Source: Phyllobacterium sp. (GTDB lineage: Bacteria; Pseudomonadota; Alphaproteobacteria; Rhizobiales; Rhizobiaceae). Taken from it: a stretch of 64,000 nt of DNA. Location: the NCBI RefSeq assembly GCF_037994425.1, contig NZ_JBBNAM010000325.1, positions 2,438-66,437 of the forward strand. Direction: 5' to 3'. The notes under the pieces are model-generated. The model saw nothing but the letters and a program-made list of their open reading frames with translations, ran no database searches and was not told the DNA's origin. Shown one piece after another: positions 7,408 to 29,512 of this stretch; within the stretch, counting starts at the first letter, position 1, and each line of letters starts with the position of its first letter. The translations under genes and the position numbers were made by a program.

Positions 7408-8694
7408 TTAACCCGCCTTGCTCAACGCCTGTTCCAGGTCGGTAATGATATCTTCAACGGTTTCGATGCCGATGGAGAGGCGGATAACCTCGGGCCCAGC
7501 CCCGGCGGCGACCTTCTGTTCGTCGCTGAGTTGGCGATGTGTCGTGGATGCCGGATGGATGACCAGCGATCGCGTATCGCCAATATTGGCAAGGTGCGAG
7601 AAGAGCTGCAGTGCTTCAACAAACTTGACGCCGGCGTCATAGCCGCCACGCAGCCCAAATGTGAAAACGGAACCAGCTCCCTTTGGCGCATATTTTTGTT
7701 GGAGGGCGTGATACGGGTCTTCCGGTAGCCCCGCATAACTCACCCAAGCGACCTTCTCGTGTCTTTGCAGCCATCGCGCGACCGCGAGTGCGTTTTCTGC
7801 GTGGCGCTGCATGCGCAGCGGCAACGTCTCGATGCCGGTGAGGATCTGGAACGCGTTGAACGGCGAAAGCGCTGGACCGAGATCCCGCAGGCCGAGAACG
7901 CGGCAGGCGATGGCAAAGGCAAAATTGCCGAAGGTGTCGTGGAGGACGGCACCGTTATATTCCGGGCGCGGCTCCGACAGCAGCGGATAATTGCCGGATT
8001 TCGACCAGTCGAACGTACCGCAATCAACAATGATACCGCCCATTGAATTGCCGTGGCCGCCGAGGAACTTGGTGGCTGAATGGACGATAATATCTGCACC
8101 GTGCTCAATCGGCCGGATGAGATGGGGTGTTGCGAGCGTATTATCGACAATGAGCGGAAGGCCATGGCGATGAGCGATCTCCGCGACGGCCGCAATATCT
8201 GTAATGATCCCGCCCGGATTGGCGATGCTTTCGATAAACACCGCGCGTGTCCGTGCGTCGATCTGGGACTCGAACGACGTCGGGTCATCGCCCTCTGCCC
8301 AGCGCACCTGCCAGCCGAACGACTTGAACGATTGGCCGAACTGGTTGATCGAACCGCCATAAAGTTTGTTCGAGGCAACGAAATTGTCCCCCGGCTGCAA
8401 CAGAGTGTGGAAGACCAGGAGTTGCGCCGCATGACCGGACGCGACGCTGAGCGCCGCTGTTCCGCCTTCGAGCGCCGCAACCCGCTCTTCCAGGACTGCG
8501 TTGGTGGGATTGGTGATGCGGGAGTAAATATTGCCGAAGGCCTTCAAGCCGAACAAAGACGCCGCATGATCGGCATCATCGAAGACAAAGGCTGTCGTCT
8601 GATAGATCGGCGTTACCCGCGCCCCAGTCGCAGGATCGGGCTTGGCGCCGGCGTGGACCGCAAGTGTTTCTATTCCGGGTGCGCGATGCGCCAT
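7408..8694 (-). CDS. metY: O-acetylhomoserine aminocarboxypropyltransferase (PLP)
   Basis: ETLAVHAG, YSRITNPT, PLP lysine in HSATKF; GGAGG RBS before MAHRAPG. Confidence 0.92.
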   Translation of the reverse strand: MAHRAPGIETLAVHAGAKPDPATGARVTPIYQTTAFVFDDADHAASLFGLKAFGNIYSRITNPTNAVLEERVAALEGGTAALSVASGHAAQLLVFHTLLQPGDNFVASNKLYGGSINQFGQSFKSFGWQVRWAEGDDPTSFESQIDARTRAVFIESIANPGGIITDIAAVAEIAHRHGLPLIVDNTLATPHLIRPIEHGADIIVHSATKFLGGHGNSMGGIIVDCGTFDWSKSGNYPLLSEPRPEYNGAVLHDTFGNFAFAIACRVLGLRDLGPALSPFNAFQILTGIETLPLRMQRHAENALAVARWLQRHEKVAWVSYAGLPEDPYHALQQKYAPKGAGSVFTFGLRGGYDAGVKFVEALQLFSHLANIGDTRSLVIHPASTTHRQLSDEQKVAAGAGPEVIRLSIGIETVEDIITDLEQALSKAG

Positions 8695-18436: not shown

Positions 18437-18862
18437 ATGCCGGACCGACATGAATTTTATCGCATTGAGATCTGCGGCCGCACCTTTACCGGTACCGTCC
18501 ACGCCGACGGTCCGTACTTGAAACTGCTAGAAAGCCGCACCTTTGGTTACGGCGCTCCACTTCGCTCGCATCTGGTTCTTTCGAAGCGTGCTGGTAGACG
18601 CTACTATGCCGTCTACCGCAATGCCGAACCGCTTATATCGCTGCCCCTCTTCCTCGATGAGGACTTGGAGCTGCTCGCCGGGGAGTTCGGCATACCAATC
18701 GATGACAGGTCCAGACATTATTCGTTCGCACGCAGCCCGGCCTCGCAAGCGCTGAAGGAGTGGTCCCTTCAACATCCGGAGATTGCTCGCGCTTGTTCCG
18801 GCATCACGACAATTATCCCCCGCTGGTACCAGTTAGGTCGTCGCCGCCTCGCCTCACTTTGA
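18437..18862 (+). CDS. Hypothetical protein
   Basis: AGGAGAACAGG before ATG; 141 aa; no family recognised. Confidence 0.6.
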   Translation: MPDRHEFYRIEICGRTFTGTVHADGPYLKLLESRTFGYGAPLRSHLVLSKRAGRRYYAVYRNAEPLISLPLFLDEDLELLAGEFGIPIDDRSRHYSFARSPASQALKEWSLQHPEIARACSGITTIIPRWYQLGRRRLASL

Positions 18863-19885
18863 CGGCGGGAAAATCACTTTCCAGTCGTCCTTCATGCTGA
18901 CGACCTGCCAGCCCTTTGCGACTGCTTCGTCCCAGCCCTTATCGAGCTTCGCCAGCTTGTCGGTGCGGTCGTAGGCATATTCGCGTTCTGCGTCGTCATG
19001 ATGGATATAGACCGCCAGCCCCGCCCCACTCCCGGCCGTCGTATATTCCAGCATTTCGCGATCCCCGTCGGAGTTTCCGATCGCTATGATCGGCCGGCGT
19101 CCAATGAACCGGTTGATACCCACGGGTTTGCCGGCACCGTCATCAATAAATTCCACCTTGGGTTCCTTCATCAATTCGGGCTTGCCGTCGGCACCGAGCT
19201 CATATTTGACGACACCGGACGAGCCAATGACCTGCTCCGGCGGCACACCATAGATTTTCTCGGCAAAGACGCGCATGAACTCGACGCCTCCACCCGACAC
19301 GATAAATGTCCTGAACCCATTGTCGCGCAGATAAGTGAGCAGTTCGAGTTGCGGCTGGTAGACAAGTTCGCCATAGGGTTTCTGTCGGACCGGGTGCTTC
19401 GCGGTTGCAAACCAGTCGGCGACATTCTTGGAGAACGCTTCCGTGGTCATGCCCGTGTGCGTTGCCACCATGATCTCGCCAACACCCTTCATGCCGGCCG
19501 CTTCGATACCTGCCATATCGTTGGCAAGCACTGATTTGTAAGGCTCTGTAGCCTTCCATTCCGGGTGCTCAGGCGCCATGCGCTTGATCTCATCCATTGC
19601 AAAGAAAAACTCGAAGGGAACCGGCTTTTCCGCCCATAGCGTTCCGTCATTGTCGAAGACCGCGATGCGATCCGCGGGAGCGACGAAGTCGACTGAGCCA
19701 TCGGTCGTAAACCGCTTGACGAAATCGACGATGGCTGTTCGGTTTGCTCCATCGTTCCAGGATGGCAGCGGGTCGGATTGAGCAAAGGCCGAAGCCGTAT
19801 TCAAGACCAGAAATATGGTGAGGGCAGCCCAGGCCCCGGCCAGCCTTGCGAGGCGACCGCGCCCCGAGCTCGCAAAATCTCTCAT
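18854..19885 (-). CDS. Exported HAD-superfamily hydrolase
   Basis: Signal peptide ending ASAFA; motif I FDNDGTLW, IVSGGG, GNSDGD. Confidence 0.92.
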   Translation of the reverse strand: MRDFASSGRGRLARLAGAWAALTIFLVLNTASAFAQSDPLPSWNDGANRTAIVDFVKRFTTDGSVDFVAPADRIAVFDNDGTLWAEKPVPFEFFFAMDEIKRMAPEHPEWKATEPYKSVLANDMAGIEAAGMKGVGEIMVATHTGMTTEAFSKNVADWFATAKHPVRQKPYGELVYQPQLELLTYLRDNGFRTFIVSGGGVEFMRVFAEKIYGVPPEQVIGSSGVVKYELGADGKPELMKEPKVEFIDDGAGKPVGINRFIGRRPIIAIGNSDGDREMLEYTTAGSGAGLAVYIHHDDAEREYAYDRTDKLAKLDKGWDEAVAKGWQVVSMKDDWKVIFPPSK

Positions 19886-20079
19886 GACTCTCTCCTGCCA
19901 ACAAGTCGCAATTCATTCATATCGGCTCGTGTGGATGGCAACGGGAAGTACGTAACAGTTACATGGGGGCCCGCCGCGAAAGGGTGAGACAAAATCCTAA
20001 TCCTTGTCCGGTGGGCGGCTCCGTGATAATTTGCTGCCATTCCGCTCAAGAGAATCCGAGATAGGGCGGAGGACGTGGA

Positions 20080-20670
20080 ATGAAGATTCTGTATGGTTCC
20101 GTTCTAGGGATCATGCTGGGGATGTCAGCTGTATTGGCAGGCCCGTTGCATGATGCTGCCAAGGACGGTGATGTCGCGCGCGCGAAACAACTGATCGATC
20201 AAGGTGCAAAGGTGGTGGAACCCGATGAAACGGGAGAACCTCCATTGCTCATTGCCGCATTGAATGGTCATGCGGATGTTGTCGTGCTGCTGTTGGAACG
20301 AGGTTCCGACATTGAGATCCGCAATAAAGGCGGCCTGACGGCGTTGCACGCGGCTGCCTATGGCGGACATCTCGATGTGGTGGAATTGCTCGTTTCCAAA
20401 GGCGCGGCCATCAACGACCAGAAGAATTTTTATCACATGTCGCCCCTGCACGCGGCTGCCGAGGAGGGCCATGCGGATATAGTTGCATTCCTCCTGGCAA
20501 ACAAAGCCGAAGTCGAGGCAACGGAAAGAAATGGCTACACGCCGTTGAGCCAGGCAGGATGGCGCGAACACTGGGATTCAGCCGACCTACTGATCAAGGC
20601 GGGCGCGGTCTGCCAGAAGGCCGACCTTGTCGGCGAGCGGCTCTTTAGCGAATGCAGCAAGCGCAAATAG
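20080..20670 (+). CDS. Exported ankyrin-repeat protein
   Basis: Signal peptide; repeats PLLIAALNGH, TALHAAAYGGH, SPLHAAAEEGH, TPLSQAG. Confidence 0.95.
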   Translation: MKILYGSVLGIMLGMSAVLAGPLHDAAKDGDVARAKQLIDQGAKVVEPDETGEPPLLIAALNGHADVVVLLLERGSDIEIRNKGGLTALHAAAYGGHLDVVELLVSKGAAINDQKNFYHMSPLHAAAEEGHADIVAFLLANKAEVEATERNGYTPLSQAGWREHWDSADLLIKAGAVCQKADLVGERLFSECSKRK

Positions 20671-20720
20671 GGCTCGGAACAGCGAGAGCCGCACCAGATT
20701 TACGGAATTGGAGGATTGGA

Positions 20721-21233
20721 ATGTCAGATCACAAGCGGAGACACGCGATAGCGATAGCAGCGGCCGTTGTTGGCGTGCTTTCGTTCGCACAGCCGGTTGT
20801 GGCGAAGGAATTCGTCAATACTGGCTATTTCGGAGACGTTGCGATCAAGGGCTATGACCCGGTCGCCTATTTCACCCAGCATGATGCCGTGCAAGGCAGC
20901 CCGCAGTATTCTTATCACTGGCTCGGCGCCACCTGGCAATTTGCCAATGCCGAAAATCGTGACCTGTTCAAGGGCGATCCAAGCAAATACGCTCCGCAAT
21001 ATGGCGGTTATTGCGCCGACGGGGTTTCCTTCGGCACGGTAACAACCAATATCGATCCGAAGGCATGGCGTATCATCGAGGGCAAGCTTTATATCAGTTA
21101 TGACCCCGGCACGGCGGAAGGCTTCGAAGAGAGCCCGACCAAGCTGACCGACTCGAAAAAGCATTGGTCGGAAGTCGAGCAGACGCTCGTTTCGGAGAAG
21201 CAGAAGAAGGACTGGGAAGGTCCCACCAACTGA
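20721..21233 (+). CDS. Exported YHS-like domain protein
   Basis: GGAGG RBS; signal peptide; GYDPVAYF and YAPQYGGYCA (Cys codon TGC). Confidence 0.92.
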   Translation: MSDHKRRHAIAIAAAVVGVLSFAQPVVAKEFVNTGYFGDVAIKGYDPVAYFTQHDAVQGSPQYSYHWLGATWQFANAENRDLFKGDPSKYAPQYGGYCADGVSFGTVTTNIDPKAWRIIEGKLYISYDPGTAEGFEESPTKLTDSKKHWSEVEQTLVSEKQKKDWEGPTN

Positions 21234-21234
21234 C

Positions 21235-23493
21235 CTACAAAGGCGCTACCGAGAAATACTTGAGGGATTGCGGCGTGACCTGGATATAATCCATGTCATG
21301 CTCATCTGTAGTTGTGTTGCGGTAGACATAGCCGCAAACGGTGCGGTTACGGAAATAGCCTGGATATTTTTCGCAAAGTCGGTTGCCCTGGACCTCGACG
21401 CCTCCGGTGATGTTGGTGTTGGCGCTGCGATAGGCTGTATTACCTGAACTGTCGAAAAATTGGATGAACTGCGTGCCGTTTCTGTGTTTGCCCGCCCATT
21501 TCTTGTTGTTGATCAGGTCCTGCAGTTCCGCCTCGCTCAATTGATCCGCCTGCTTCCCTTCAAAACCGAACGGCCATTGCGGAACGCGGGCCGCTTTCAA
21601 CCCGGCGAGATGGTAGTCGAGATCGTCTTTTTGCCAGTAGTCGTAGAGATAGCTGTAATAGGTCAGATTGGCGTCCGGAAACAGTTCCATCAATTTCGCC
21701 TTTTCCTCGGCCGCTGGAGTAAGCGCACCCTCATTGATATAGGCGGCGGCGAGATATTCTCGTGCGGGTTCCACCTTGGGTAGAGCATCACGCGCAGCCT
21801 CGAGCAATGGTATCGCCCGTTCGTTTTCCCGCGCGGTGTAATAAACGATGCCGGCCAGAAGCTTGAAACTCGGCTCTGGCGACGGGTCAAGCCGCAGGGC
21901 GCGGTCCATTTCGGTCGCCGCCTGCCCGCGGCTGCCGGTCTGCGCAAGGATAAGGGCAAGGTTTGCGACTGCTTCCGGATCGTTCGGCTGGGTAGCCACA
22001 GCCCTGTTCGCGGATTCCCGCGCCTCCACCTCGCGGCCATCGACGAGTTGTAGCAGCGCGAGCACGGTATGCGCCCGGGCATTGTTGGGGTCGATCTTCA
22101 GCGCTTCGCCGGCCGCATCATAGGCAATCTTCCGGGCCACAGCTGCTGACCAGAGGAAATTGTAGTCGTTGCGCCAGACGTCGACCGCCACGCGCGCGAT
22201 ACCAGCGTGGGCATTGGCAAAGTTCGGATCAAGATCAATTGCCTTCTGGTAGTATGACAAGGTCCGGCGATATGTATCAACGTCGGCGTAGAAAAATCCC
22301 TCTTGCTCGGCCCGCATATAATAGTCGTAGGCTTCAAGATTGTCGGTCGGGATACGCGCGAGCTGGTCCCGCTCGCCGTCACTGAGCTTGACCTCGAGCG
22401 CCGAGATGATCTTGCCGATCACATCGTCCTGGACAGCAAAGAGATCCGCATATTGTCGATCGTAGCGCTCGGCCCACAGGGAAAGGCCGGTGACCGCATC
22501 TATCAACTTGACGTTGATGCGCAGGCGGCTGTCCGCGCGCTGCAGCGTACCTTCAAGAATATAGTGCACGCCGAGTTCGGCGGCGACGTCCTGTATCTTG
22601 ATTGCCGAAGTGCTGACGGCGAACACGGAATGACGAGCGATGACGAAGAGGCCCGACACCTTTGAAAGCTCTGTGATGAGATCATCCGTCAGGCCCTCGG
22701 CGAGGTGGTCATGCTCTGTGTCACCGCTGACATTGATGAATGGGAGAACGGCTACCGATGGCTTATCGGGTAAAGGATAGGCAAAGCGCTGGGTGGGTGC
22801 GGAAGGCCAGATCAGGGTCCAGGGTTTGAACCACATCGAAGATCCCGCCAGCACCAAAGCGACAAGCGCGGCCGCAGCCGGAACCCGCCAGGAAAAAATC
22901 CTCTTCGGTGCGCCGAGCGTTTTGCCGGCAGCTGACGGATCGAGCACGACGCGATAGACGCGCACGGGTTCGGCAATGCTTTTAACCTTTTGTTCGCCAA
23001 GCGAGACGTAGCCCACGGGCAGTCGGGATTTGACATGATCGTAGGTCGTGCCCGAAATCGCGATGCCGCCCGGTTCGGCCAGTGCCTGTATCCGGTCGGC
23101 GATATTGACGCCGTCGCCGTGAATATCGTCTCCCTCGACGATAATGTCCCCAAGATTGACACCTATGCGGAATTCCAACCGGTGCGCGGCAGGTTCTCCG
23201 GCGTTTCGCTTTGCCTTCTGTTGCTGGATTTCGACGGCACAACGCAAGGCGTCGACGACGCTGTGAAACTCGACCAGCACACCGTCACCCATGGTCTTGA
23301 CCAGGCGACCGTGATGCTTGGCGATCCTTGGTTCAAAGACTTCATGGAGATCGCTCTGGAACCTCGCACGGGTCCCTTCTTCATCGATCTGGCTCAAACG
23401 GCCATAACCGACTACGTCGGCGATCAGTACGGCAGCGAGGTGACGTTCCATTTCCCCGTTTTCCCCGGAGCGCAATGTAACTCCGTCCGTCAT
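21235..23493 (-). CDS. Class III adenylate/guanylate cyclase with TM helix, TolB_N-like domain, TPRs and an extra C-terminal domain
   Basis: ADVVGY, VKTMGDG, GDGVNIADR; hydrophobic VPAAAALVALVLAGSSMW; KPSVAVLPF...GLTDDLITELSK; TPRs. Confidence 0.93.
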   Translation of the reverse strand: MTDGVTLRSGENGEMERHLAAVLIADVVGYGRLSQIDEEGTRARFQSDLHEVFEPRIAKHHGRLVKTMGDGVLVEFHSVVDALRCAVEIQQQKAKRNAGEPAAHRLEFRIGVNLGDIIVEGDDIHGDGVNIADRIQALAEPGGIAISGTTYDHVKSRLPVGYVSLGEQKVKSIAEPVRVYRVVLDPSAAGKTLGAPKRIFSWRVPAAAALVALVLAGSSMWFKPWTLIWPSAPTQRFAYPLPDKPSVAVLPFINVSGDTEHDHLAEGLTDDLITELSKVSGLFVIARHSVFAVSTSAIKIQDVAAELGVHYILEGTLQRADSRLRINVKLIDAVTGLSLWAERYDRQYADLFAVQDDVIGKIISALEVKLSDGERDQLARIPTDNLEAYDYYMRAEQEGFFYADVDTYRRTLSYYQKAIDLDPNFANAHAGIARVAVDVWRNDYNFLWSAAVARKIAYDAAGEALKIDPNNARAHTVLALLQLVDGREVEARESANRAVATQPNDPEAVANLALILAQTGSRGQAATEMDRALRLDPSPEPSFKLLAGIVYYTARENERAIPLLEAARDALPKVEPAREYLAAAYINEGALTPAAEEKAKLMELFPDANLTYYSYLYDYWQKDDLDYHLAGLKAARVPQWPFGFEGKQADQLSEAELQDLINNKKWAGKHRNGTQFIQFFDSSGNTAYRSANTNITGGVEVQGNRLCEKYPGYFRNRTVCGYVYRNTTTDEHDMDYIQVTPQSLKYFSVAPL

Positions 23494-23638
23494 CTTATCG
23501 CAGGTCCTCTGCCGATACCATTATGCTCAAATGGGTGAACAGTCAGCTGGGCATCCGACCGAGGATCGGAACGGTAATATTTGCCATCGCAGCTTTAATC
23601 GTCCCGAGGTTGCTCTATTTAGAGTGTAGTCTGGACTG

Positions 23639-24907
23639 ATGATGACGGAGAACCTAGTGATGCAAAGCCAATCGACCACCTCTTCTGTTTCTCCGCTCGC
23701 AGATGACGCAACCTGGCCGGTCAAGAGGCGCAGGCTGCTCGACTGGCTTGTCCAGGAGACAAGTGAAGAGCGCTTCATTGACAACATCTTCGTCGATCTC
23801 AACAACCGGCTTGCGAGGGACCACGTCCCGGTCGCGCGCTCGACGCTGCATCTCAGGACGCATCATCCCCAGTGGCTGGGAGCGCGCATTATGTGGAAGA
23901 CCGGCATGGAAAAGGCGGATATCCAGACCTTCGGTTATGATGTCGAGGAAACTGAACGGTATCGCAACAGCCCGATAGACAGGATCAAGAGCGGTGTAGG
24001 CGAGATTAGATGGCGACTAGAGAAGGATAGCAAGGAAACCTATCCTCTATACGATGAATTACGCTCGCAGGGTTATACCGATTACGTCGCCTGGCCGCTC
24101 TATCATACGTTGGGCAAGGAACACGTGGTGACCTTTGCCTCCGACAGTGAAGGTGGTTTTACTGACGAGCACATAGCCTACCTGACCGATCTTCTCCCGG
24201 CTCTGGCGCTCGTCAGCGAGATCCGATTGAAGAACAGGTTGGCGCGCACGCTGCTTGAAACCTATGTCGGGCCCCATGCCAGCGAGCAGATCCTCGCAGG
24301 CGCCACGACGCGCGGCAGCGGCGTTACCGTCGGTGCGGCCATTCTGATCTGCGATCTGCGGGATTTCACCGCGATATCTGACCTCTGGCCACGGGATGAT
24401 GTCATCGAGCTTTTGAATGGCTATTTCGATGCGATGGCGGAACCGATTGCCCGCCACGGCGGCGAAATACTGAAATTCATGGGCGATGGACTCCTTGCCA
24501 TCTTCCCGCTTAGCGATCCCATGGCTTGCCGAAATCTCCTGGAGGCCATCGGCGAAGCGCAGGTTGCGCTCGCCGTGCTCAACAAAGACCTCGTGCAAAA
24601 GGGGCGCCTCCCGCTTGGCTACGGCATCGGTGTCCATGTCGGGGACGTAATGTATGGGAATATCGGATCTCGCAGCCGTCTCGACTTCACGGTGATCGGA
24701 CCAGCTGTGAACATCGCCTCGCGGCTCGAAAGCCTGACCAAGGAAATCAAGCGACCGGTCCTCCTGTCGAAGGCATTCGTCGAGATGGCCGACTGTACGA
24801 AGGAATTCGAAAGTCTTGGTTCACACATGCTGCGCGGTCTTGATCGTCCATTCGATGTTTTTGGCCTGAAGGAGGCTGACAAGGTAGCCGTTCTGACGCA
24901 CGCCTAG
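23639..24907 (+). CDS. Class III adenylate/guanylate cyclase with GAF-like N-terminus
   Basis: ICDLRDFT, LKFMGDG, DFTVIGPAVNIASRLE. Confidence 0.93.
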   Translation: MMTENLVMQSQSTTSSVSPLADDATWPVKRRRLLDWLVQETSEERFIDNIFVDLNNRLARDHVPVARSTLHLRTHHPQWLGARIMWKTGMEKADIQTFGYDVEETERYRNSPIDRIKSGVGEIRWRLEKDSKETYPLYDELRSQGYTDYVAWPLYHTLGKEHVVTFASDSEGGFTDEHIAYLTDLLPALALVSEIRLKNRLARTLLETYVGPHASEQILAGATTRGSGVTVGAAILICDLRDFTAISDLWPRDDVIELLNGYFDAMAEPIARHGGEILKFMGDGLLAIFPLSDPMACRNLLEAIGEAQVALAVLNKDLVQKGRLPLGYGIGVHVGDVMYGNIGSRSRLDFTVIGPAVNIASRLESLTKEIKRPVLLSKAFVEMADCTKEFESLGSHMLRGLDRPFDVFGLKEADKVAVLTHA

Positions 24908-28056: not shown

Positions 28057-29512
28057 CTAAGCCAGTCCCATGCGTTCCGCACCGCGGCGGATGGCTTCAA
28101 CGGCGGGAGGATTGGTAATCGGATAGCCGGCAATGAACATTTCCGGGTTGAAATCAGGAAACTCGCTCGCGAGTCGAGCGGCGATTTGGTTCGCTTCTTC
28201 CATCTCACCCAACAGGGCAGGGGCCATGGCCAGGAACATATGGGTCGACGGCATGTCCTGCGGTGCGCGCCTGAACGCTGCAATCGCTTCGCGGTGGCTG
28301 CCGATGACGAAGGTCACGCGGCCGAGCATGCTGAAATACCAGACCGGTGGCAGAGCGTTGATTTGAAGCGCTCGTTCGATCAAACAACGGCCCTCGGCGG
28401 GGTCTCCCGCCGCAAGTGCCCGGCTGCCGGCGACGAGTGCAAGAACGCCGCTGTCGTTGGGAGAATTTCGTAGCGCCCGGGTATTCTCGGCGATTGCGCC
28501 TTCAAAATCCCCGCTCAATGCAAGAAAATCCCCGACACACTGCCGCGCGGGGCTATTGCCGGGATCAAGCTCCAATGCCTTGGTAGCGCAATATTTGAAG
28601 CGCTCAAGCGACGTTGCGGCATTGCCGCCATACCCGTTGGCACCTTGCACGGCGTAGGCAAAGCCCAGTTCGTCCCAACCTTGCGAAAATGAAGGATCCA
28701 ATTCCACGGCTCGGGAGAGCAATCGAATCGCATTCTCGTTCGCTGATTGACTGTAGATATTGAGCTGTTCGACCCCGAGTAGATGGCACTCGTACGCGCT
28801 CATGCTTTCAGGCGGCTTGCGCCGAACAACAATGTTACGGCGAAACTGTGCCAATTTCCCGCAGCAGCTTGCAAGGACGTTGATAACATTTTCGCTCACG
28901 GACTCTGCACCGCAAAGACGTCATCGGTGGGCTCGTCAAACCGCGCCGACCACAGACTCTCACCGCTCTTCGCATCGACAAGCTGAACGGAGATGCGCAA
29001 ATGATCATTTGCCGCTGCCTGCAGGCTGCATTCGACAAGATAATCGGCGTGAAGGTCGCGCCCAATGGAGCGCGGATCGTCATGGCGGCCCTTGAGTGCG
29101 AACATCGTGTAGCGGGAAATCACCGCGAGGTCTGGGTAACGGGCAAGGTCGACGATAAGGTCGGTCGTCAGCCCATCTGCAAGGCGTGACCAGCGATCGT
29201 CGCCAGCCAGATTGTCAAACGGCAAGACGGCGATGATTGGGGGACCGGACGTTTCCTCGGAAGAGTGGAGCGGAGACGGCCCGACATCGTCGGCCTGCTG
29301 AGCGGAAAGTGATTGGCAAGTGCCATTTTATTGTGCACGCCGAGTTTCTGATAAATGACGGAGAGATGCGTTCGTACCGTTGTCGGTGCGATGAAAAGCG
29401 CTTCCCCGATTTCACGATAGGTCATTCCCGCAACGAATTTCGCCGCGACGTCGCCCTCGCGCACCGAAAGGTCGGCGCACAGTTTCGCATCGATGGTGTC
29501 GCGAGGCGCCAA
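28057..29512 (-). pseudogene. LuxR-HTH / TolB_N-like / TPR regulator split by two frameshifts
   Basis: LuxR HTH (LSVREG...TVRTHLSVIYQKLGV), then IIAVLPFDNL...GLTTDLIVDL, then TPRs, in three ORFs; each junction (about 29307 and 28900) is repaired by adding one base. Confidence 0.85.

Follow-up and report, generated by a model that had tools for sequence, protein, structure and literature searches.

Genes and features of the locus

The 64,000-nucleotide stretch of Phyllobacterium sp. DNA analysed here (contig NZ_JBBNAM010000325.1, positions 2,438 to 66,437; referred to as the window) carries a gene for a receptor-type class III adenylate cyclase that converges on two genes, ank and yhs, for an exported ankyrin-repeat protein (Ank) and an exported YHS-family protein. 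Beyond ank lies a gene for an exported HAD-superfamily hydrolase, and beyond the receptor cyclase a divergently transcribed gene for a second cyclase. An original prediction, made from the sequence alone, had joined all five into a trans-envelope cAMP module; its placement of the genes, domains and export signals agrees with the open reading frames (ORFs), with the Pfam and NF041384 scores and with the predicted N-termini. The coordinates are collected in Table 1.

Table 1. Predicted features of the window, and repeat arrays at related loci (numbered with the locus prefix)
Feature	Position	Strand	Remarks
Exported HAD-superfamily hydrolase, HAD-IB-like	18854-19885	-	PF12710 46.4 bits, cut-off 27; DxDxT intact
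Candidate sigma-70-like promoter element of ank	20003..20030	+	CTTGTC, 16 nt, GATAAT preceded by TG
Exported ankyrin-repeat protein, 196 aa	20080-20670	+	Signal peptide, ~4 ANK repeats, C-terminal Cys pair C178/C192
Exported YHS-family protein, 170 aa	20721-21233	+	Longest ORF from 20652; NF041384 137.1 bits, cut-off 70
Single-pass class III cyclase, 752-aa ORF	21235-23493	-	PF00211 43.6 bits
Unnamed C-terminal domain, ~120 aa	21238..21606	-	aa 630-752; modelled as helix + 8-stranded beta barrel
TPR region, predicted periplasmic	21607..22458	-	aa ~346-629; several TPR Pfam families above cut-offs (aa ~410-625)
TolB_N/FlgO-like domain, predicted periplasmic	22459..22776	-	aa ~240-345
Single transmembrane helix	22828..22887	-	aa ~203-222
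Class III adenylate cyclase catalytic domain, predicted cytoplasmic	22909..23451	-	aa 15-195 of 752-aa ORF
Second cyclase, soluble class III	23639-24907	+, divergent	PF00211 48.8 bits
Repeat arrays before ank, wHTH+BTAD loci	L110:7520-7620, L122:6575-6675, L124:6090-6190, L125:6530-6630

Signal peptides and topology were called from sequence features and Kyte-Doolittle (KD) hydropathy. The N-termini of the three small proteins are signal-peptide-like: RLARLAGAWAALTIFLVLNTASAFA followed by QSD in the HAD protein, MKILYGSVLGIMLGMSAVLA followed by GP in Ank, and MSDHKRRHAIAIAAAVVGVLSFAQPVVA followed by KEF in the YHS protein, for which the start with a ribosome-binding site is the ATG at 20721 (GGAGGA upstream). 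The HAD protein also matches TIGR01488 (HAD-IB phosphatase) at 29.3 bits, under the curated cut-off of 45, and Ank matches the families Ank_4 (114.8 bits), Ank (110.3) and Ank_2 (104.8), all above the Pfam cut-offs. The yhs stop codon (21231-21233) and that of the receptor cyclase (21235-21237) are separated by 1 nt, as originally described, and no convincing intrinsic terminator was found at this convergent junction. Orthologues of the receptor cyclase are 738 aa long, so its true start is probably MERH at 23451; the closest matches are in P. pellucidum (94% identity) and Phyllobacterium sp. YR620 (93%). The second cyclase lacks any hydrophobic segment of transmembrane (TM) grade (maximum KD 1.39), in keeping with its earlier designation as soluble.

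Domain organization of the receptor cyclase

The PF00211 match of the receptor cyclase covers aa 21-172 and is well above the cut-off of 21.9 bits. Residues D12, K52, D56, R95, D109, N116 and R120 of the catalytic domain are present, and each is kept in 86-91 of 91 relatives; we take these to be the two metal-binding Asp residues, the Lys/Asp substrate pair of the ATP type, the transition-state Asn/Arg and a phosphate-binding Arg. The catalytic residues are thus retained, and by its sequence the enzyme reads as intact.

The original claim that the catalytic domain precedes a TM helix, so that the remaining domains would be periplasmic, agrees with the hydropathy profile. The sole KD-19 peak above 1.6 lies at aa ~199-222 (KD 1.84), after the catalytic domain, and is followed by the TolB_N-like domain, the TPR region and the extra C-terminal ~120 aa; an equivalent peak between output and TolB_N-like domain is present in every full-length relative (KD 1.6-2.9, and at least 1.84 in all but one). 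The TolB_N-like domain of the window cyclase is matched by PF17680 (FlgO) over aa 246-334 with 21.7 bits (E = 2e-4), against a cut-off of 22.6, and in the relative P0227 the homologous region scores 29.3 bits with TolB_N (cut-off 22.4) and 29.7 with FlgO (cut-off 22.6). Sequence matches of the periplasmic region in the PDB are to generic TPR proteins only, and there is weak similarity to the periplasmic/TPR regions of CadC and HilA.

The C-terminal domain has no Pfam match even at E = 10. An AlphaFold2 model computed on an alignment of 31 sequences predicts a helix and an eight-stranded beta barrel (predicted local distance difference test score, pLDDT, 91.6; predicted template modelling score 0.84). 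Invariant in the alignment are a WP pair, two cysteines spaced C-x12-C (C707 and C720 in the window) and one Phe, with a nearly invariant VYRN. A fold search of the PDB with this barrel gave nothing significant (best E = 0.04, template modelling scores no higher than 0.52); the nearest folds, themselves non-significant, are calycin- or avidin-like and include Tp17, rhizavidin, the lipocalin Bla g 4 and phenolic acid decarboxylase.

The source genome holds a single barrel domain and a single yhs gene, and these adjoin each other. It also encodes eight further cyclase-TolB_N-TPR proteins and nine other TolB_N-TPR paralogues, whose alignment with the window cyclase ends at aa ~600-640 and all of which are without barrel and without yhs. 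The window itself contains, at 28138-29243 (-), ~3 kb past the second cyclase, a decayed TolB_N-TPR paralogue that is interrupted by an in-frame TGA and likewise has no barrel domain.

Conservation of the gene neighbourhood

Orthologues of the receptor cyclase with 60-94% identity were examined at 80 loci in eight or more genera, including Phyllobacterium, Rhizobium, Ensifer/Sinorhizobium, Pararhizobium, Mesorhizobium, Neorhizobium, Mycoplana and Pseudaminobacter. At all 80, ank and yhs lie downstream of the cyclase in convergent orientation, directly adjacent in 78, and the stop-to-stop gap between cyclase and yhs is mostly 2-30 nt. All-against-all clustering of the flanking ORFs identified no gene family beyond these three at more than 14 of the 80 loci. 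The flanks thus turn over while the trio persists, and the conserved unit comprises three genes and not five.

Co-occurrence across genomes had been put forward as the check on the five-gene grouping, and it divides that grouping. The receptor cyclase keeps ank and yhs throughout, but the HAD gene and the second cyclase each stand beside them at only one locus, that of the closest relative (L001), and at none of the distant loci described below. A module of HAD protein, Ank, YHS protein, receptor cyclase and soluble cyclase could draw on the contiguity of the five genes in the window and in L001, and on the export signal that the HAD protein shares; with two of its members missing from 79 of 80 orthologous loci, it is very improbable. 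Nor is the term trans-envelope supported, there being no outer-membrane component in the system. On the evidence of the neighbourhoods, the genes of the HAD phosphatase and of the second cyclase lie outside the conserved unit, as neighbours specific to this lineage. What stands of the earlier interpretation is a functional tie of Ank and the YHS protein to the periplasmic part of the cyclase, of which the originally proposed tuning from outside may be the basis.

Several individual loci depart from the common arrangement. In two loci from Ensifer sp. IC4062 and MPMI2T, L018 (11208-15812) and L023, cyclase and yhs are parted by an insert of 4.6 kb that encodes a DUF899/AhpC-TSA-like protein of thioredoxin fold, a beta-propeller-like repeat protein and a major facilitator superfamily transporter. 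A connection of the thioredoxin-fold gene with a redox theme is possible but by no means certain. Nine loci of the R. leguminosarum group (L013, L015, L017, L024, L025, L036, L063, L070 and L079; position ~8460-8580, -) have a divergent cyclase upstream of the receptor cyclase. This is not orthologous to the second cyclase of the window (39% identity, catalytic domain only), and cyclase genes seem to cluster. In the complete genomes of R. ruizarguesonis Vaf-46 (L070) and Rhizobium sp. RCAM05350 (L075) the cyclase match covers 62-72% of the query, with an in-frame stop ~500-600 nt before the expected end. Disruption or a frameshift of the receptor gene is probable there, and ank-yhs is intact.

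The barrel domain with other outputs

A search of 1.8 billion representative proteins with the barrel domain recovered 175 clusters at 50% identity, and in those inspected the domain is at the C-terminus of the protein. Full-length members share the order TM helix, TolB_N-like domain, TPR region and barrel, and vary in the output that precedes these: a class III cyclase (about 21 clusters), a winged helix with a BTAD domain (wHTH+BTAD, SARP-like; 8 clusters), a ToxR-like winged helix (wHTH; 7 clusters), wHTH together with a cyclase (4 clusters) or a Ser/Thr kinase (1 cluster). Several clusters have only a short membrane anchor. The contigs of a stand-alone barrel protein (P0142) and of a 1148-aa cyclase (P0266) are too short for their neighbours to be read. 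The barrel is a mobile extracytoplasmic domain that has no family name.

Among the distant loci reached, which include metagenomic variants, yhs is present at 17 of 17 and ank at 15 of 17, and one of the two loci without ank stops at a contig edge. The partner genes are convergent with sensors of the wHTH (L081), Ser/Thr kinase (L082), wHTH+cyclase (L113) and anchor-only (L114) types, and with divergent-sequence cyclases from whole genomes (L084, L085 and L115-L120). At four wHTH+BTAD loci (L110, L122, L124 and L125) sensor, ank and yhs are instead co-directional, and the flanks are unrelated, with phage-like recombinase/primase genes, ParA and pst/phoU. In a phylum-wide sample of 401 genomes, all eight genomes with a match are alphaproteobacterial.

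Gene linkage thus follows the predicted C-terminal periplasmic barrel, not the cytoplasmic output, and the comparison of genomes strongly supports a functional tie between the periplasmic part of the cyclase and the exported Ank and YHS proteins. Simple inheritance of gene order, with no functional link, might be suspected since most loci come from one order, Hyphomicrobiales, and since the matches in the phylum-wide sample are confined to Alphaproteobacteria. We regard it as scarcely credible, however: the genes around the trio are exchanged completely; the three stay together through rearrangements of order and strand and through replacement of the output domain, in settings unrelated to one another; and barrel and yhs are paired one to one among the 18 paralogous sensors of the source genome. 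Selection, as far as gene neighbourhoods can tell, holds the trio together while its surroundings change.

Some of the distant loci have additional copies or neighbours. L119 (G498:C1:1515000-1530000) has two tandem barrel-sensor cyclases beside one ank-yhs pair, in an array that continues with further cyclase and wHTH-TolB_N-TPR genes. Two tandem yhs paralogues stand by the sensor in L113 (3913-4648) and L114 (1676-2526), one copy of each pair being far more diverged; L114 also carries ank, and L113 shows two yhs genes and then the contig end. In L082 (5303-8775) a gene for an extracytoplasmic function (ECF) sigma factor directly precedes the kinase-type sensor with a gap of 12 nt, an arrangement that points to an ECF sigma factor under control of the kinase as one more output.

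The ankyrin and YHS proteins

Signal-peptide-like N-termini are present in 84 of 87 Ank and 109 of 111 YHS homologues, and a C-terminal C-x13-C pair in 86 of the 87 Ank homologues; conserved cysteines are thereby found in all three proteins, in the sensor barrel, at the Ank C-terminus and in the YHS protein. The window YHS protein has a single Cys, in the sequence PQYGGYC (family motif PQYGG[YHF]C), and this column is invariant among 42 aligned members. It occupies the position of selenocysteine (Sec) in the 'GxU' motif of YHS selenoproteins (PMC13188914), a family first described in PMC1976440. 

Against the classical YHS/TRASH model (PF04945) the scores are 21.4-22.3 bits, under the cut-off of 30.3. 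The lone Cys of the mature protein lies outside the YHS core and the classical metal-ligand cysteines are absent; what are presumably the classical ligand positions read A/Y and N/E. An AlphaFold2 model has a pLDDT of 83, and comparison with the PDB gave zero sequence matches and no meaningful fold match. In a maximum-likelihood tree a single branch (support 98/94) parts the sensor-linked YHS proteins from 20 stand-alone ones, and the residues after the Cys differ correspondingly, CADG in sensor-linked and CAWAV in stand-alone copies. Neither ank nor a sensor accompanies the 20 stand-alone genes, and no neighbour recurs among their loci. One stand-alone gene, L126:4250-4750 (G388:C1), was considered as a Sec-containing example and rejected, since its in-frame TGA falls on an invariant Trp column instead of the Cys/Sec position; the gene may be a pseudogene, be read through or contain a sequencing error.

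A position at which Cys and Sec are interchangeable is the usual sign of a redox-active residue. Together with the conserved cysteines of all three proteins, this raises the alternative that Ank and the YHS protein are maturation or stability factors for the barrel, acting on its disulfide or on a cofactor, and not signal-sensing subunits. There is a precedent in AnkB of Pseudomonas aeruginosa, a periplasmic ankyrin protein that is encoded with katB and is accessory to the catalase. Two dedicated proteins for one domain of 120 aa would be unusual, though, the general Dsb machinery is normally enough for a single disulfide, and no sign of a cofactor was found, so that we consider a pure maturation role unlikely.

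Sequences upstream of ank

In several orthologous loci the motif CTTGTY...GTGATA is found equally far from ank; a generic promoter scan left the window element unscored, and its assignment as the ank promoter is a tentative one. A Clr/CRP-like box (TGTK-N8-MACA) is present upstream of ank at only 1 of 87 loci, and feedback of cAMP on ank was rejected on this count. The conserved candidate sigma-70-like promoter, taken with the lack of such boxes, favours constitutive expression of the partners at the window locus. The window, L001 and L005 share a conserved 5' leader element of ank, TTCCGCTCAAGAGAATCCGAGATAGGGCGGAGGA (window 20040-20079), in which CCGCTC may base-pair with the GGGCGG that adjoins the ribosome-binding site.

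The wHTH+BTAD loci are organized differently. In the gap between sensor and ank they have five invariant (A/G)ACG direct repeats with an exact 11-nt spacing, CGAATTGACG...AGACGG (Table 1), and GACG repeats are absent upstream of ank in all other output classes. Direct repeats at 11-nt spacing are the pattern of binding sites for SARP/OmpR-type activators, so ank-yhs is probably, in this class, a direct transcriptional target of the sensor.

A probable three-gene sensing cassette

We consider it probable, on comparative grounds, that the barrel-domain receptor cyclase, exported Ank and exported YHS protein form a self-contained three-gene cassette for extracytoplasmic sensing. The receptor would be a single-pass protein with its N-terminus inside, its cyclase domain in the cytoplasm and, after the TM helix, its TolB_N-like domain, TPR region and barrel in the periplasm, where Ank and the YHS protein would work with the TPR/barrel region. 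The input would be the chemical state or a ligand of the reactive Cys of the YHS protein, or a ligand that it shares with the barrel; Ank would serve as adaptor, and a shift in the oligomeric state of the receptor would change cAMP synthesis. Class III cyclases, ToxR-like wHTH proteins, SARP-like wHTH+BTAD proteins and Ser/Thr kinases are all activated by dimerisation, and a response by oligomeric change would fit the fact that every output found on this sensor is of this kind. In the transcription-factor variants ank-yhs may also be the direct target of the sensor, so that its products would be target and modulator at once, as CpxP is.

A number of observations weigh against this reading. One cyclase locus (L083) has yhs in divergent orientation and no ank, and two divergent barrel sensors (L086 and L087; 26-29% identity) are without either partner gene. 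Of 401 alphaproteobacterial genomes sampled, 118 encode a member of the YHS family and 7 the barrel domain (4 strong); YHS proteins, being far commoner than the sensor, must have a function that does not need it. What the signal is can only be guessed from the Cys/Sec position and from a barrel whose fold has no significant match among solved structures. To these are added the five repeats of the wHTH+BTAD loci, where adjacency could reflect the pairing of regulator and target alone; as ank-yhs looks like a target in these relatives, the partners may be effectors or feedback elements and not pure co-receptors.

Extended to all classes, that pairing becomes an alternative to the cassette: the sensor would detect a periplasmic signal on its own, for example a small ligand of the barrel, and switch on ank-yhs, whose products would bind or detoxify the signal and make no contact with the sensor. 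One-component regulators are often encoded beside their targets, ank-yhs lies downstream of the repeats on the same strand as the wHTH+BTAD sensor, and most members of the YHS family operate without a barrel sensor. This scheme fits poorly with the cyclase class, however, whose output, cAMP, is diffusible, whose genes converge and whose candidate ank promoter is conserved and looks constitutive; both the rarity of Clr/CRP-like boxes and the restriction of GACG repeats to a single class speak against it. The presence of the partners also tracks the barrel across five unrelated outputs, as a shared periplasmic function predicts, although a shared ligand explains this equally well. As the sole explanation we find it possible but rather doubtful. 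The data would suit Ank and the YHS protein both as sensor partners and as targets only, and the roles of partner and target are compatible.

Within the three-gene cassette, a more specific division of labour can be proposed tentatively, as a possibility well short of the cassette itself in likelihood. The YHS protein would be the primary periplasmic sensor, responding through its Cys or Sec to a redox-active, chalcogen or metal species; Ank would be the adaptor; and the barrel would be a docking module through which the pair could drive any dimerisation-activated output, be it cAMP synthesis, a ToxR-like or SARP-like transcription factor or a Ser/Thr kinase acting on an ECF sigma factor. If true, this would constitute a new three-protein receptor architecture and the first function for the orphan YHS selenoprotein family.

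Relationship to known systems

Full-text literature searches found no paper that combines a YHS protein, an ankyrin protein and a cyclase, in agreement with the original statement that no system of this composition had been described, and a 2026 paper on cytokinin and CyaB in S. meliloti has no overlap with the Ank-YHS-cyclase module. Related principles are nevertheless familiar. CpxP of E. coli is a periplasmic accessory of CpxA/CpxR that is encoded by the sensor genes and is both target and modulator, and ExoR of Sinorhizobium is a periplasmic Sel1/TPR-like repeat protein acting on the rhizobial ExoS/ChvI system. The CpxA-CpxP and ExoS-ExoR pairs resemble the cassette in that a membrane sensor is matched with a small exported protein, which in the cassette would likewise act on the sensor from the periplasm. 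Those sensors are histidine kinases with one accessory, whereas the cassette would have two, Ank and a YHS protein of a Cys/Sec family, and a single-pass TolB_N-TPR-barrel sensor with cAMP as its output, or, in relatives, wHTH, wHTH+BTAD or Ser/Thr kinase.

ToxR/ToxS and CadC are alike in having the N-terminus inside, an N-terminal output, one TM helix and a periplasmic sensor with a Cys pair, which is functionally important in the ToxR/CadC type; a ToxR/CadC-like wHTH output is present in relatives of the window sensor, and the CadC model matches aa 257-501 of the window cyclase with E = 7e-10, far below the cut-off. The window sensor differs in adding a TPR region and an unnamed barrel, in its partner proteins and in its cyclase output.

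The S. meliloti cyclases CyaD1, CyaD2 and CyaK have CHASE2 sensors, and their perception of the signal needs the outer-membrane beta-barrel protein NsrA. Like the receptor described here they are rhizobial class III cyclases with a periplasmic sensor that depends on a further envelope protein; by description, to which this comparison is confined, they have no ankyrin protein, no YHS protein and no TPR/barrel sensor. Background on the receptor-like cyclases of S. meliloti is given in PMC5498481 and PMC13001267. 

The window YHS protein, with Cys at the Sec position, is a clear member (137.1 bits) of the NF041384 (seleno)protein family, to which no function is assigned and in which the sensor-linked copies form a clade of their own. 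AnkB is similar to Ank in being an exported ankyrin protein that serves the product of a neighbouring gene in a redox context, but its partner is a catalase and not a receptor, and the likeness is that of ankyrin repeats. The cassette is accordingly an undescribed variant of envelope sensing assisted by accessory proteins.

Significance

Rhizobia and their relatives encode dozens of receptor-type cyclases, and the signals of almost all of them are unknown. For one that is widely conserved, the comparison presented here provides two candidate partner proteins and a defined sensor domain. This cyclase is 60-94% identical over eight or more genera, and tractable species such as Rhizobium leguminosarum, R. 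tropici and Ensifer adhaerens have it; the question of its signal is therefore testable. The annotation of the locus is corrected as well, in that neither the HAD phosphatase nor the second cyclase should be counted as part of the system. An orphan family of YHS (seleno)proteins acquires its first functional context, and in the barrel-ended receptors one sensor module has been joined, in the course of evolution, to outputs by cAMP, by transcription factors and by a kinase.

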